From positions 1-22,948 of the forward strand of contig CAZGJX010000071.1 in NCBI GenBank assembly GCA_964525635.1: a DNA stretch of 22,948 bases, in the 5' to 3' direction. Both the position numbers and the translations under genes were made by a program. The notes under the pieces were generated by a model. The model searched no databases, was not told the DNA's origin, and saw only the letters and a program-made list of their open reading frames with translations. Below are positions 3,537 to 21,880 of the stretch, piece by piece; the stretch's first letter is position 1, and each line of letters starts with the position of its first letter. Source of the stretch: an uncultured archaeon. Lineage in GTDB: Archaea > Asgardarchaeota > Lokiarchaeia > Sigyniarchaeales > SOKP01.

Positions 3537-3833
3537 TTAATATCTTCTATCCTTACCAATTATGTTTACATTAAGAGCTTCTGGTCCTTTTCCATTATTA
3601 TTATCTATTTTTACATCAAATTCAACCTCATCTCCTTGATCGAGTTTCTTAAAACCATCCATTATAACATTTGAAAAATGAACAAATATGTCTTCTTCTT
3701 GGTCATTTATGGAGATGAAGCCAAATCCTTTTTTATAGTCGAACCATTATAATTTATCTTAGAAATTAAGATAAATTTTTACCCATCCGACTTTTCTATT
3801 GCTATTATCTAATTCATTCTTTTCTTCTGTCAT
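3537..3833 (-). CDS. cspA: Cold-shock domain protein, spliced: join(3833..3777,3746..3537), 88 aa
   Basis: Manual translation: MTEEKNELDNSNRKVGWVK|WFDYKKGFGFISINDQEEDIFVHFSNVIMDGFKKLDQGDEVEFDVKIDNNNGKGPEALNVNIIGKDRRY*. RNP-1 (KGFGFI) and RNP-2 (IFVHF) are intact. A 30-nt insert splits VK|WF. Absent from the ORF track. Confidence 0.9.
3747..3776 (-). other. Putative BHB/BHL mRNA intron (30 nt) in cspA
   Basis: Sequence ATTTATCTTAATTTCTAAGATAAATTATAA with two in-frame TAA. Inner helix TTTATCTTA/TAAGATAAA (9 bp); central helix GTAA/TTAT; bulges AA^A and AA^T; exon-exon helix AGTCGGA/TTCGACT. Confidence 0.85.
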
Positions 3834-4115: not shown

Positions 4116-5477
4116 ATGAGTATTTTCGATAAAATTTTAGATATATATAGAGATAGTTATATCTGCAAATATTGTCTGGGCAGGATGTTTTCTTTACTAG
4201 CAACAGAAACCACTAATGAAGAAAGAGGTAAATCACTATTATTATCATTGACAATGGATAACCATAAACAATATCTTTCTGGAAATGAATCTAATAGAAA
4301 AATAGCAATTGAGAATTTACAAATTTTAGCTGAAAAAGCAAATTATCTTCCTGCTCAAAAAGTTTTAGAAAAAGAAGGTGTTTCAAATAAACTTATGAAT
4401 AATGAACTAAATTGCTATTTATGTAATAATATTTTTTTAAACCTTGAAGAATATATAAAGTATGCAAAAAATTATATTAAAGGAATAGAATTCAAGAATT
4501 TCTTAATAGGGACTAGTCCAAGCGCTAAAATTATCAATAGGGAAGATAAATTTAAAGCTAAACTTAATATTATAGAAGCAGAATCTTTTAAATCTCACCT
4601 TAATCGAGAAGTAGGAAAAAGATTATCAGAAGAAATTAATAGGCCTTCTGAATTTAATTATCCCGATCTCACAATAATTTACTCAATAAGTTTTAATTCT
4701 TTTTCAATACAATTACTTTTAAGATCAGTATTTATTTATGGAAGATATAAAAAGTTTTTACGTGGAATACCTCAAACACGTTGGCCTTGTCATAACTGTA
4801 AGGATGAAGGGTGTAAACTCTGTAATTTCACAGGTAAACAATATGAGACAAGTGTTGAAGAATTAATAAGTCCTGAATTCATTAAGAAATCTGTGGCAGA
4901 GAGTTCAAAATTCCATGGTGCTGGAAGAGAGGATATTGATGTGCGGATGTTAGGAACTGGTAGACCTTTTATTTTAGAACTTAAGAATCCAAAACTTAGA
5001 AGTTTAGATCTGGTTGAATTATTAGATAAAGTTAATATAATTAATAAAGATAAAGTTGAAATAATAAATCTTGAATATACAGATAAAAATCATGTTATTA
5101 AAATGAAGGAAAATGCAGAAAATACAAAAAAAACTTATAAAGCAATTGCAGAAAGTTCAAAAGAAGTTGGAATTACTGTTTTTCAAGAAAAATTAAACCA
5201 ATTAAAAAATATTTTTGAAAATAAAACAATTGACCAAAGAACACCACAAAGAGTAGCTCATCGAAGGGCAGATAAAATTAGAGATAAAAAAATCTATAAT
5301 ATTGAAGGAAAGTTTTTAAAATCAAATTTATTTGAATTTTTGATTGAGACTCAAGGAGGTACTTATATTAAGGAATTGATAAGTGGTGATGAAGGGAGAA
5401 CATCTCCATCATTCAGTGAAATCCTTGAAGTTCCATTGAAATGTATAGAATTAGATGTTTTAAATATTGATTATTGA
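4116..5477 (+). CDS. pus10: tRNA pseudouridine(54/55) synthase Pus10
   Basis: CKYCLGR N-terminus; GRYKKFLRGIPQTRW; catalytic FHGAGREDIDVRMLGTGRPF; QRTPQRVAHRR; GGTYIKELISGDEGRTSPS. Confidence 0.95.
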   Translation: MSIFDKILDIYRDSYICKYCLGRMFSLLATETTNEERGKSLLLSLTMDNHKQYLSGNESNRKIAIENLQILAEKANYLPAQKVLEKEGVSNKLMNNELNCYLCNNIFLNLEEYIKYAKNYIKGIEFKNFLIGTSPSAKIINREDKFKAKLNIIEAESFKSHLNREVGKRLSEEINRPSEFNYPDLTIIYSISFNSFSIQLLLRSVFIYGRYKKFLRGIPQTRWPCHNCKDEGCKLCNFTGKQYETSVEELISPEFIKKSVAESSKFHGAGREDIDVRMLGTGRPFILELKNPKLRSLDLVELLDKVNIINKDKVEIINLEYTDKNHVIKMKENAENTKKTYKAIAESSKEVGITVFQEKLNQLKNIFENKTIDQRTPQRVAHRRADKIRDKKIYNIEGKFLKSNLFEFLIETQGGTYIKELISGDEGRTSPSFSEILEVPLKCIELDVLNIDY

Positions 5478-7438: not shown

Positions 7439-8113
7439 ATGACGATTTTAAAATTAAGGAATCTTGTGAAGATTTTTGGAACAGATCATACTGCTATTAA
7501 GGCTGTTGATGATATATCTCTTGATCTTAAAAAAGGAGAAATTATTTTAATTTCTGGGCCAAGTGGATCAGGAAAAACTACATTACTTTCCATGATTGGA
7601 TGTTTATTAAGTCCAACATCAGGGGATATCATTATTGATAAAGAAAATATAACTAAATATCCTCAAAAAAAACTATGGAAAATTAGATTAAATCGAATAG
7701 GATTTATATTCCAACAATTTAATTTATTACAATCATTAACTGCCAGAGAAAATGTCCAAATTCCTTTACAATTAACAAGAAATAAGAAGAATTATATAAA
7801 AAAGAAAGCTGAAGAATTGTTAAGAGAACTAGGGCTAGAAAAGCGAATTAGCCATTTACCAAAGGAACTCAGTGGCGGGGAAAAACAACGTGTTAGTATA
7901 GCTCGTGCATTGATCAATAAACCGGATATAATCTTGGCAGATGAGCCAACAGCAAATTTAGATTCAAAATCAGGTCACATTGTCATTGAAATGACAAAAA
8001 AATTAGTAAAAAAACATGGATGTGCTATGATTATGGTGACTCATGACCATAGAATTGAAGATATAGCCGATAGAATTTTATTTATGGAGGATGGAAAAAT
8101 TTGGACAAATTAA
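7439..8113 (+). CDS. ABC transporter ATP-binding protein (LolD/MacB-like)
   Basis: GPSGSGKT, IGFIFQQFNL, LSGGEKQRV, ILADEPTANLD, VTHD; SD GAGGTGA upstream. Confidence 0.95.
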   Translation: MTILKLRNLVKIFGTDHTAIKAVDDISLDLKKGEIILISGPSGSGKTTLLSMIGCLLSPTSGDIIIDKENITKYPQKKLWKIRLNRIGFIFQQFNLLQSLTARENVQIPLQLTRNKKNYIKKKAEELLRELGLEKRISHLPKELSGGEKQRVSIARALINKPDIILADEPTANLDSKSGHIVIEMTKKLVKKHGCAMIMVTHDHRIEDIADRILFMEDGKIWTN

Positions 8114-17342: not shown

Positions 17343-20300
17343 ATGAGCTATACATTCTCAAGAACTAAATTAATAGAGAAAATTAAGTTTGGGCTTCTGA
17401 GTCCCGACGAAATCAGAAAAATGTCATCTGCAAGGATCATCACGGCAGATACATATGATGAAGATGGACTGCCGATCCCTTCCGGTTTGATGGATCAACG
17501 GTTGGGAACGATTGAGCCGGGTCAGAGATGCCAAACCTGTGGAAATCTTGTATCAAATTGTATGGGGCACTTCGGACATTAAATTTCTTTTATGAAAGCA
17601 TTTCGCTTTATTTGTCTAAATCGAGTTGGCCCGTCCAGTTATCCACGTAGGCTATTCTAAAAAAGTATTAAAAATATTGAGATCGATATGTCCAGAATGT
17701 TCAAGATTAATGCTTTCTGAAGAAGCTAAAGTAAACCTTCAAAAAGAACAACAATTACATCATAAACTCTCCTATGAAGGGGATGATGATATTACTAAAA
17801 TTGTCTTTAAAAGAGCGAGAAAAAATAAAATATGTCCTTATTGTGGTGCTAAGAAAAAAAAGATAATTTTGGAAAAACCAACTACTTTCTATGAAGAAGA
17901 AGAAGCTAAAGGCTCTCGACGATTAACACCCATAGAAATTAGAGAACGAATGAAAAAAATGATGGATGTAGATCTTCGAGTTTTAGGAATATCACCACAA
18001 AATGCAAGAATGGAATGGGTTGTTTTCACTGTTTTACCAATTCCTCCTGTATGTGCTCGACCTTCAATTACACTAGATAGTGGTATACGCTCTGAAGATG
18101 ATTTAACACATAAACTTGTAGATGTAATTCGAATTAATCAAAGATTAAGAGAAAATATAGATGCTGGAGCACCACACTTGATAGTTGAGGACTTATGGGA
18201 ACTATTACAATATCATATCACAACATACTTTGATAATCAAGTATCTGGAATCCCTCCTGCTAGACATCGCTCTGGTAGAGCATTAAGGACACTAACACAG
18301 AGATTAAAAGGAAAAGAAGGGCGTTTCAGGAGCAATCTCAGTGGAAAGCGTGTAGATTTTTCAGCTAGGAGTGTTATTTCTCCGAATCCACATATAAGTA
18401 TTAATGATGTTGGTGTTCCACAAAAAATAGCTAAAATATTAACTATTCCAACTAATGTAAATGATTGGAATATTGAACAGATGAAACAACTAGTGTTAAA
18501 TGGACCCAATAAACACCCTGGAGCGAATTATATTATTAGGAATGATAGACGAAGAATAGATCTTCGTTATGTTAAAAATAGAAAAATAATCGCAGACATG
18601 CTAGCACCAGGATTTACTGTTGAAAGACATTTAAACACTGGAGATTTAGTATTATTTAATCGACAACCATCGCTACACAGAATGTCGATTATGGCTCATG
18701 AAGTAAAAATTATGGATGGTAAAACATTTCGTTTAAATCTTACCGTATGCCCTCCTTATAATGCAGACTTCGATGGTGATGAAATGAACCTTCATGTCCC
18801 TCAAAGTGAAGAAGCAAGAACAGAAGCAGAATTATTACTAAAAGTTCAAGAACATATATTATCTCCTCGTTTTGGTGGTCCAATTTTGGGGGGAATTCAA
18901 GATTTTATATCAAGTATATTTCAATTTACGGGGTTGGATTCTTTATATGATGTTAAAGACACTTTAAAATTACTCTTTATGGGAGGAATCTTCGATTTAC
19001 ATCCCGATTTTGATTTAAAAAATATCAAACCAATCAAAACTGAACCTGAACCAATGTACTCTGGTAAACAAATTTTTAGCACACTTTTACCTAACGATTT
19101 AAATTTAAGATTGAGATCAAAATTCTGTAAAAAATGCTTTATTAAAAATGGAGAAAAATGTAAAGAAGAAAAGTGTGAATATGATGCATATGTAACAATT
19201 AAAAATGGTGAACTACTTACAGGTACCATTGATGAGAATTCATTTGGTGCAATGCAATCAAATAGTATTCTTCAAAGAATAATTAAGGACCATGGAAACG
19301 CAACGGGTAGAGAATTTTTAGATAACGCTACTAGAATGCTTCTTTATGTTATTAGACAAAATGGTATAACAATGGGACTCGATGAAGTATTTGTCAAAGG
19401 TGAAGCATTTGAACATATTCAAAAAGTATTACATGACGCAACTGATGAATCAAAACGTCTTATAAAAGCATTTAGAGAAAATGATAATAAAATCTTAAAA
19501 AGAGCACCTGGACGGTCATTAAAAGAAACTTTAGAATTACGAATTAGACAAGTTCTTGCTGAAGCGCGTAAAAAAGCAGAAGAATTAGCTTCACATTATA
19601 TTGGAGATGATGCTCACTCAGTTATTATGACTAAATCTGGAGCAAGAGGAAATATATTAAATTTAGGACAAATGTCAGCAGTTGTTGGACAACAAGCTAT
19701 CAGAGGTGAAAGGATAAATAGAGGTTATTCTTCAAGAACTCTTCCACATTTTAAAGTAGATGATTTAACACCAAAAGCTAGAGGATTTGTAGAACAATCC
19801 TATAGAAATGGACTTGAACCTGCGGGCTTCTTCTTCCATGCTATGGGCGGTAGAGAGGGCTTAGTGGACACTGCGGTAAGGACATCAACGAGCGGTTATA
19901 TGCAAAGGCGCTTAGTTAACGCTTTACAAGATATGGTTATAGAAAATGATGGAACTGTCCGCAATTCAGATAAAAACATTATTCAATTCAGATTTGGAGA
20001 TGATTCAGTAAATCCTCAACACACAGATCATGGTGCTGCCGTTAACCTAGATGTCCTATTACTTAAAGCAAAAACACTTGATTTAGAAGAAATTAAACAT
20101 AAAGGTAAGAAACCTGTAGACACCAAATCCAAAAAACCTACACCAGAAAAAGAAGCCAAACTTAAGCCTTCAACAACGGCAACTACACCTAAATCAACAA
20201 CAAAGAAACCTACACCTAAACCATCAACAAAGAAATCAACTAAAGCTCCTGATGAAGATTCATTACAAGAAAAATTTAAAGAGGAAACTGGAAAAAATGC

Positions 20301-20370
20301 GGTTTGGCGTGGTAAAATAACTCAGCAATATATTGAGTGGAAAGAGCAAAACTATGGAATTAAGGAATAA
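17343..20370 (+). CDS. rpoA1: RNA polymerase subunit Rpo1N (A'), spliced: join(17343..17579,17620..20370), 995 aa
   Basis: [26 protein letters not shown]|[38 protein letters not shown]. The two ORF-track pieces join into one gene when 40 nt are removed. Confidence 0.95.
17580..17619 (+). other. Putative BHB/BHL mRNA intron (40 nt) in rpoA1
   Basis: Sequence TAAATTTCTTTTATGAAAGCATTTCGCTTTATTTGTCTAA. Central helix GGAC(17574-77)/GTCT(17614-17); bulges AT^T and AA^A; inner helix AAAT/ATTT; hairpin AAAGC-ATTTC-GCTTT. Excision gives GGA CAT ATC GAG TTG = GHIEL. Confidence 0.88.
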
Positions 20371-20644: not shown

Positions 20645-21880
20645 ATGACAAAAGTTACAACTCAAATGTTGAATAGATCTTTAAAAGAATTAGAAGATGA
20701 TGGAATTCCAAAGGATTTAGTTGACAAGATCCGGAATAAAATAAAAGATGAAGATTTGGAAGAAGAACAACTTGAATACCTTCTCAATAAAGTATTTATC
20801 AATTTCAATAATGCAATTGTTGAAGCTTCTGAACCTGTAGGAACTGTAGCTGCACAATCGATTGGTGAACCTGGAACACAAATTTTATTGCAATTGGCAA
20901 TATAAGTGGAAATGACACTAAGAACCTTTCACTACGCAGGAGTGGAAGAATTCTCAGTAACTCAGGGTTTACCTCGTCTGATTGAGATAGTGGATGCACG
21001 TCGATTTCCTTCTACTCCAAACATGACAATCTTTTTGGATAAAGATCACTGTAAGGATGAGAATGAAGCAATTAAAGTTCACAATAGGATTGAACAAATT
21101 AGAATTGAACAAATTAGTTCAGAAGTGGATCTGGATTTTGTTAATTGGAATATTGTTATTAATTTAATACCTAAAATCTGTGATAAAAAGGGAATTGATA
21201 TCGAAAAGATTCCTGAGATCTTAAAACGATATAAAAAGAAAGGTTCGATAAAAAGAGAGGGAAATAAAATAATTATCGATCCTGGAATTGAAGACTTACA
21301 ACAACTTCAAAAACTGCGTGAAAAAATACTTAAAAAAGTTGTTAAAGGTATAAGAGGAGTTAAAAGAGGTTTATTAACACCTTCTGATGATGGTAATGAA
21401 TGGGTCATTAAAACAGAAGGGACAAATATGGTGGGTGTTGTTCAAATAGAAGGTGTTGATGTTACAAGAACTACCTCAAATCATATTCATGAAGTTGAAA
21501 AATTGTTTGGAATTGAGGCCGCAAGAGCTCTTATTATTGAAGAGGCTAAAAAGGTACTTGAACAACAAGGTTTAGATGTCGATTTAAGGCATTTATTAAT
21601 CCTTTCTGATTTAATGTGTGGAACGGGCGCAATTCAATCTATTGGAAGGCATGGTATTTCTGGAGCAAAATCAAGTGTGTTTGCAAGAGCTGCTTTTGAG
21701 GTTACTGTTAATCAATTACTAGATGCTGGTTTATACGGTGAAGAGGAGCGTTTACTAGGTATTCCGGAGAATGTTATAGTAGGACAGGTCTGCCCAATAG
21801 GAACTGGTCGCGTATCCATACAATTCGATTTAGATAAAAATCTAGAAATCTTAAAAGGAAGGAATATCCAAAAAAATTAA
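20645..21880 (+). CDS. rpoA2: RNA polymerase subunit Rpo1C (A''), spliced: join(20645..20881,20912..21880), 401 aa
   Basis: EPVGTVAAQSIGEPGTQ|MTLRTFHYAGV (trigger loop), VTQGLPRLIEIVDA, RAAFE, ENVIVGQ, GTG. Confidence 0.95.
20882..20911 (+). other. Putative BHB/BHL mRNA intron (30 nt) in rpoA2
   Basis: Sequence ATTTTATTGCAATTGGCAATATAAGTGGAA with an in-frame TAA. Inner stem TT/AA plus TATTGC/GCAATA; central helix ACAC/GTGG (3 of 4 paired); both bulges AA^A. Excision gives CAA ATG = Q-M. Confidence 0.85.

Follow-up and report, generated by a model that had tools for sequence, protein, structure and literature searches.

In the literature that we searched, introns removed by the splicing endonuclease have been described in one archaeal coding sequence, that of cbf5, and in one 5' untranslated region (UTR). 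Here we describe a 22,948-nucleotide (nt) stretch of DNA from an uncultured Lokiarchaeia archaeon (contig CAZGJX010000071.1 of assembly GCA_964525635.1; the whole stretch is hereafter "the window"), in which a cold-shock protein gene, csp, is interrupted by a 30-nt insert that is very likely an mRNA intron of the cbf5 kind. The cbf5 pre-mRNA intron occurs in the Desulfurococcales and Sulfolobales (Watanabe 2002; Yoshinari 2006; Yokobori 2009, PMC2738675), and the cut made by the endonuclease, EndA, falls between bases two and three of a bulge (PMC2738675). The same paper mentions unconfirmed predictions for other genes, and a 2020 paper gives cbf5 and the 5' UTR of Haloferax volcanii HVO_1309 as the known mRNA cases (PMC7714728).

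Asgard archaea have an (alpha-beta)2 EndA with an L1 loop, the type that cuts relaxed motifs, and the relaxed HBh' form of the motif termed bulge-helix-bulge (BHB) is a recognised EndA substrate (PMC5829648). Non-canonical tRNA introns are described as abundant in these organisms (PMC11291895; bioRxiv 10.64898/2026.10.13.758758). The text of the preprint contains neither "mRNA" nor "cbf5", and for none of its new sequences, it states, has splicing been demonstrated so far (bioRxiv 10.64898/2026.10.13.758758). We found no report of mRNA introns in Asgard archaea in the literature searched, most subscription journals lying outside that search.

A cold-shock gene is restored by removal of a 30-nt insert

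The csp gene lies on the minus strand at 3833-3537, with its ATG at 3833 and its TAA at 3539-3537. Unspliced, the frame runs through 19 codons to GWVK, then through 10 codons that include two TAA, and then through 69 codons from WFDYKKGFGFI to a final TAA; the minus-strand translation reads ...KVGWVK-IYLNF(stop)DKL(stop)-WFDYKKGFGFI...DIFVHFS. An earlier note on this DNA, made from its letters, had proposed a hidden cold-shock gene holding a 30-nt insert with two in-frame TAA and had left the strand unsaid; the gene is indeed there. Its parts are as follows.

3777-3833, minus strand: exon 1, 19 codons ending in ...GWVK, alignable with intronless orthologues
3747-3776, minus strand: insert (predicted intron), 30 nt, phase 0, two in-frame TAA, 10% G+C, missing in 66 orthologues
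3537-3746, minus strand: exon 2, 69 codons and stop, with WF, RNP1 (KGFGFI) and RNP2 (IFVHFS), 57-79% identical to family orthologues

When 3776-3747 is removed, the exons encode an 88-amino-acid (aa) cold-shock protein, as the note had claimed, with the junction AAA|TGG (VK|WF). Three deletion registers are equivalent in their spliced sequence, owing to a 2-nt AA repeat. Exon 2 matches the Pfam cold-shock domain (CSD, PF00313) with E=7e-22 and 77.5 bits (cut-off 27), and the restored protein has the VKWF strand, RNP1, RNP2 and the full domain. It also keeps all 36 columns that are conserved at a level of at least 90% in the family.

Without splicing, translation would give only a 24-aa peptide, and the next in-frame ATG would open a 41-aa fragment that lacks RNP1 and RNP2. 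Public databases represent the csp gene of the window as a fragment of 41 aa, and the orthologues that bear introns as fragments of 59-74 aa; the truncated gene calls concerned (P0015, P0046, P0099-P0101) span 41-74 aa. Two further entries, P0102 and P0103, resemble these truncated calls and may point to more intron-bearing genomes. For none of the nine insert-bearing genes described below is the spliced product identical to a database protein, which counts neither for nor against splicing.

The insert and its flanks can form a relaxed BHB motif

The predicted RNA structure comprises the following elements.

3779-3782, minus strand: central helix, exon strand GTAA, pairing with TTAT at 3752-3749
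3749-3752, minus strand: central helix, intron strand TTAT, covarying with the exon strand across orthologues
3776-3778, minus strand: 5' bulge AA|A, predicted cut after the second base (3777/3776), from the geometry and the rule in PMC2738675
3746-3748, minus strand: position of the 3' bulge AA|T, within a 2x4 internal loop, predicted cut 3747/3746
3753-3775, minus strand: intron hairpin, 9 base pairs (bp; 3775-3767 with 3761-3753) and a 5-nt loop
3785-3792, minus strand: exon-exon helix, 5' strand, 8 pairs with 3737-3744
3737-3744, minus strand: exon-exon helix, 3' strand, beyond the 2x4 internal loop

The predicted cut positions coincide with the restored exon junction. The 5' bulge is the 3-nt AAA, closed by the 9-bp intron helix (h'), and the central helix consists of one G.U and three A-U pairs. 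Both the 9-bp inner helix and the 4-bp central helix had been described in the earlier note, as had a 7-bp exon-exon helix past an internal loop, which a terminal U.G pair extends to 8 pairs. The region as a whole folds with a z-score of -5.58, and 0 of 200 shuffles were equally stable. The strict hBHBh' motif is not formed: a G.G mismatch stands where the adjacent exon pair should close the 3' bulge, and the exon-exon helix starts one step farther out. For this reason the predicted motif is of the relaxed HBh' BHB type and not a strict BHB.

Orthologous inserts differ in sequence and share the motif

We reasoned from orthologues of csp, a comparison that the earlier note had called for. Among 135 genomes of the family, 76 contain a close match, one of which is masked, leaving 75 readable; the orthologues checked adjoin pus10. 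Sixty-six of these 75 read through GxVKWF without an insert, and nine carry one (the window gene and eight others). At the K|W site, inserts of 30 nt are found in the window genome, G031 and G018, of 53 nt in G007 and G064, and of 54 nt in G065. Farther downstream, inserts occur at +17 in G005 (29 nt) and G017 (30 nt), and at +16 in G024 (31 nt). The difference between +17 and +16 in the last three genes (L007, L015 and L017) makes three positions in all, or reflects a one-base slide. With lengths of 29, 30, 31, 53 and 54 nt, four of the inserts are frameshifting; it is therefore their shape that is conserved, and not the frame.

In each gene, between 1 and 15 deletion registers restore GxVKWFxxxKG[YF]GF. 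In all nine, exactly one of these registers has a central helix with 4/4 pairs in EndA geometry, whereas 0 of 54 controls in which the intron strand was slid by 1-3 bases reach 4/4. The helix is GTAA/TTAT in the window gene and GTGA paired with TCAC or TCAT in the five other genomes with the same site, which belong to another genus; at the downstream sites it is CCGC/GCGG (+17), TCGT/GCGA (+17) and CCAG/CTGG (+16). At the level of sequence, then, the central helix covaries with the exon: there are five or six helix sequences, all paired, around divergent interiors. In the distal exon-exon helix, each of the six genes with a K|W-site insert forms 7-8 of 8 pairs, while 65 intronless genes have a median of 5 and none has 8. 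The covarying central helix in nine insert-bearing genes upholds the intron reading in the comparison with orthologues, and the exon-exon helix is supported as well. We made no use of the product of the shuffle probabilities (5e-12, for the central helix only), as it covers related lineages and is uncorrected for registers.

Separate gains of the inserts are suggested by the three positions and by the unlike insert interiors. For the K|W site they are suggested by a tree of 213 columns, in which the window csp stands apart from the other genus with this site, although a single clade is not rejected (approximately unbiased test, p-AU 0.084).

Exons are conserved around the inserts

Exon decay had been named in the earlier note as one outcome that would refute the intron reading. 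It is absent: none of the 36 conserved columns deviates in the window csp, whose distance to a reference clade is 0.31, within the intronless range of 0.25-0.38. Relatives that share inserts provide a view of selection after insertion. G031 and G018, which have a common insert with two stops, differ in their exons by seven synonymous changes and one non-synonymous change. Between G005 and G017, the proportions of exon differences are 0.73 for synonymous sites (pS) and 0.115 for non-synonymous sites (pN). The exons of G064 and G065 differ at 0 of 216 bases, while their insert has six substitutions and one gap. Judging from these sequence comparisons, the exons are under purifying selection in sisters that share inserts. 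In one genus, four intronless csp orthologues (L072, L084, L089 and L090, from G071, G088, G075 and G086, respectively) have single premature stops, reflecting csp decay or sequencing errors.

The host encodes EndA and RtcB and has further inserts

The host belongs to the Promethearchaeota (Lokiarchaeia), as the closest proteins are so named, and the window also contains a Rab-like GTPase, pus10 and archaeal rpoA' and rpoA''. The genome is 4.45 Mb with 26.8% G+C, and the sequencing runs with this DNA are from salt-marsh sediment. Two EndA-family genes are present, on contigs C18 and C105. The product of one, the catalytic EndA alpha, aligns along its length to 3p1z_B with E=4e-37, across the specific loop (also to 3ajv_B); it has a loop of crenarchaeal type and keeps the Tyr/His/Lys motifs (VVY, EH, RKK). 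The other is an EndA-like subunit that lacks both the loop and these motifs. RtcB is encoded as well, on contig C119 (E=3e-166). A predicted (alpha-beta)2 EndA with a broad-specificity loop, together with a ligase, fits what splicing of a relaxed motif needs.

Two further genes of the window are interrupted. The rpoA' gene, which is found once in the genome, has a frameshifting 40-nt insert at 17580-17619 (plus strand) at GHFGH|IELARP, with a 4/4 central helix, GGAC/GTCT. In three other genera (G005, G016 and G007) this site is occupied by unlike 30-nt inserts, with the covarying helices GGGC/GCCC, GGGC/GTCT and GGTC/GGCT, and the same-genus genomes G001-G003 have rpoA' without an insert. The rpoA'' insert, at 20882-20911 (plus strand), is 30 nt long and lies at EPGTQ|MTLRTFH with a 3/4 helix (ACAC/GTGG); it is not found in the 24 other loci that showed the motif. 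Because polymerase genes cannot be dead, removal of such inserts looks unavoidable in this cell. The comparative tests on csp in turn support the proposal of the earlier note that these introns are not limited to RNA polymerase genes. Its view that csp has the clearest structure of the three holds for the hairpin, but the rpoA' central helix is stronger and contains G-C pairs, and that of csp belongs to a relaxed motif, which is not the lowest-energy fold.

As in the window genome, csp and rpoA' are both interrupted in G005 (L121/L007) and G007 (L142/L006), which hints at a lineage-dependent intron load. Inserts of 28-30 nt in tRNA genes of the window genome show EndA geometry; on contig C54, where 22 tRNA genes are clustered, two have inserts, of 28 nt in tRNA-Phe (helix CTCG/CGAG) and of 18 nt in tRNA-Arg. 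A homology-free scan of the genome for BHB-shaped inserts between open frames gave no excess over slid controls (669 versus 629-714), nor did it with coding and energy filters (6 versus 1-6), and we therefore give no genome-wide count of introns. The scan is blind to the csp gene because exon 1 is too short. Two individual candidates are a 29-nt, BHB-shaped, frameshifting insert on contig C142 (minus strand, near 4696) in the P-loop of a GTPase, GHVDHG|KTT (eIF2-gamma-like by eye), and a 30-nt BHB-shaped insert near 7456 on the plus strand of contig C6, where the frames on either side are both strongly coding (ILGSE|MHGLAQREG). The C-terminal tail of rpoA' (20095-20370, plus strand) is rich in K/P/T/S and of low complexity. 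A promoter and terminator scan with bacterial-type models found nothing above chance.

Weighing of the explanations

The csp insert shows every feature of an EndA intron that we tested, in relaxed form, and is very probably a spliced mRNA intron. Taken together, the covariation, the selection on exons, the lack of decay and the EndA and RtcB genes lend comparative support to the 30-nt hairpin intron of the earlier note. We consider it highly likely that the insert is an intron of the cbf5 kind, cut out by EndA and rejoined by RtcB, although here we infer splicing from DNA. Routine mRNA splicing with repeated gain of introns is, in our estimate, likely.

Several observations weigh against this. 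The fold of lowest predicted energy is an 11-bp hairpin in which the central helix does not form, and the cleavable fold is less stable by 2.7 kcal/mol at 37 C and by 4.3 kcal/mol at 15 C. The csp central helix is weak: when this insert alone is shuffled, 5% of the shuffles reach a 4/4 match. The nine insert-bearing genes represent some four to six independent lineages. The window genome has no close insert-bearing sister, and selection after insertion is consequently seen in relatives only. Finally, csp is missing at this locus in three same-genus genomes (G001, G002 and G003; L186, L188 and L190), where the gap between the upstream gene and pus10 is about 170-190 nt, and the window genome has two other CSD genes. 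As csp is thus dispensable in relatives, essentiality is no argument in its case.

The alternative that survives best is a spliced intron that doubles as a switch, in which temperature or Csp itself would set the spliced share through competition between the 11-bp hairpin and the cleavable fold. This is not exclusive of splicing by EndA and RtcB; the switch is the weak part of such a joint reading. Proteins of the Csp family melt RNA structure, the competing fold exists, its advantage in the window gene grows in the cold, and inserts recur at three positions of one short gene. A role as a negative regulator has been proposed for the cbf5 intron (PMC2738675). However, the gap between the two folds is not conserved, the nine genes ranging over 0.5-3.9 kcal/mol, some genes show no widening in the cold, and nearest-neighbour models generally penalise bulged folds. 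Moreover, 66 orthologues are intronless, and like inserts are found in rpoA' and rpoA'', where a switch would be unexpected. We therefore regard a switch as unlikely, and hold equally doubtful the combination of routine splicing, repeated gain and regulation.

It is less probable still that a hairpin inserted recently into a dispensable csp, is not removed, and sits between exons too young to have decayed. The losses of the locus in the same genus, the two remaining paralogues, the lack of a close insert-bearing sister and the sub-optimal cleavable fold would all suit a young pseudogene. Yet a chance insertion would not be expected to hit the exact base at which another genus has a different insert, and there to rebuild a helix in the EndA register. 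The purifying selection in insert-sharing sisters, the conserved columns of the window csp, free of lesions, and the interruption of single-copy rpoA' by the same geometry also argue against it. The inserts have terminal repeats of only 0-4 nt, and that of the window csp has no second full-length copy in the genome and no Rfam match.

We also considered and rejected two specific element types. A mobile hairpin of the miniature inverted-repeat transposable element or repetitive extragenic palindrome (MITE/REP) type should have other copies, but the remaining matches in the genome are partial, 20-30 nt long and AT-rich (E at least 0.02), and the window csp insert has a 2-nt terminal repeat and no target-site duplication. 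A self-splicing group I or group II intron has a catalytic core that takes up some hundreds of bases, as against 30 nt here, and no Rfam match was obtained up to E=1.

Very improbable is an insert retained in the mRNA and passed by the ribosome, whether by bypassing, of the type known from T4 gene 60 and the mitochondrial byp elements, or by stop read-through. The window insert is in frame, and in bypass elements the last codon is followed by a stop codon and by a hairpin that is stable, as found after csp exon 1. Bypassing, however, does not explain the covariation between exon and intron ends, and matched take-off and landing codons are lacking: they are AAA and TAA in the window gene and unmatched in eight of the nine genes, the sole match, in G017 (AAA/AAA), following from a short terminal repeat. 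Read-through would have to suppress two UAA and would separate K from W in the first strand by 10 residues, as aligned to solved cold-shock proteins; four of the orthologous inserts, moreover, are frameshifting.

Barely credible are an error of assembly and an excision of the insert from the DNA of some members of the population: this is a metagenome assembly and short palindromes can mis-assemble, but a Logan contig, possibly from the source sample, runs across the insert and agrees with it throughout, a contig from another run covers its 5' part, a JGI contig has its last 22 nt and an identical exon 2, four DNA runs (one of which spans the insert) contain no joint that skips it, eight other genomes have inserts of the same geometry, and no repeats of recombination length are present. 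The exact spliced junction was likewise not found in JGI contigs, which counts neither for nor against splicing.

Proposed route and its implications

We propose that the csp pre-mRNA would fold into the relaxed HBh' motif, held by the distal exon-exon helix, a predicted fold that the covariation supports. In each bulge, the (alpha-beta)2 EndA would cut behind the second base, following the known rule, and RtcB would join the exons at AAA|TGG; the genes for both are present. The joined message would then give an 88-aa RNA-binding protein of the CspA type. The intron itself most likely serves no function, and would persist because its point of insertion allows the RNA to fold into a cleavable motif. 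Such introns would be gained repeatedly in this csp family.

If this is true, an Asgard lineage uses its tRNA machinery to splice many mRNAs and keeps gaining introns, with three intron positions within one 88-codon gene. It would provide a testable system for the origin and tolerance of introns in a prokaryote with coupled translation, near the root of the eukaryotes, and would mean that gene callers miss or truncate Asgard genes.

Comparison with known systems

The closest counterpart is the cbf5 intron. Like the csp insert, it is short (16-44 nt), lies in coding sequence, has a relaxed BHB-like motif that is cut between bases two and three of the bulges, varies in its interior, occurs patchily and is found in hosts with a hetero-oligomeric EndA. 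The cbf5 case, however, concerns one gene, one site and one inferred gain in the Thermoproteota, and is confirmed by cDNA, whereas the csp inserts are from another phylum, occupy three positions within 17 nt, are accompanied by inserts in further genes of the genome and are described here from DNA.

A more distant parallel is HAC1/XBP1 in eukaryotes, where a short mRNA intron is also released with cyclic phosphate and 5'-OH ends and a tRNA ligase, RtcB in animals, rejoins the exons. There, unlike in our reading of csp, IRE1 cuts two stem-loops, in place of EndA at a BHB, and the system is a proven stress switch; we claim no homology between the RNA elements.

The BHB intron in the 5' UTR of HVO_1309 resembles the csp insert in being an mRNA substrate of EndA (PMC7714728), but lies in an untranslated leader, leaves the reading frame unbroken and is cut by another type of EndA. 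The tRNA introns of Asgard archaea share with the csp insert its motif, its size, repeated lineage-specific gains and the lack of a donor sequence; in their treatment of introns, these papers deal with tRNA genes only (PMC11291895; bioRxiv 10.64898/2026.10.13.758758).

The restored protein, lastly, is an ordinary single-domain cold-shock protein like CspA and CspB (PF00313; 1g6p, 3a0j, 1csp), and an intronless csp orthologue matches TmCsp with E=6e-19. What sets it apart from CspA and CspB is a short N-terminal extension, a C-terminal KDRRY tail typical of a Lokiarchaeia subfamily, and the interruption of its gene.
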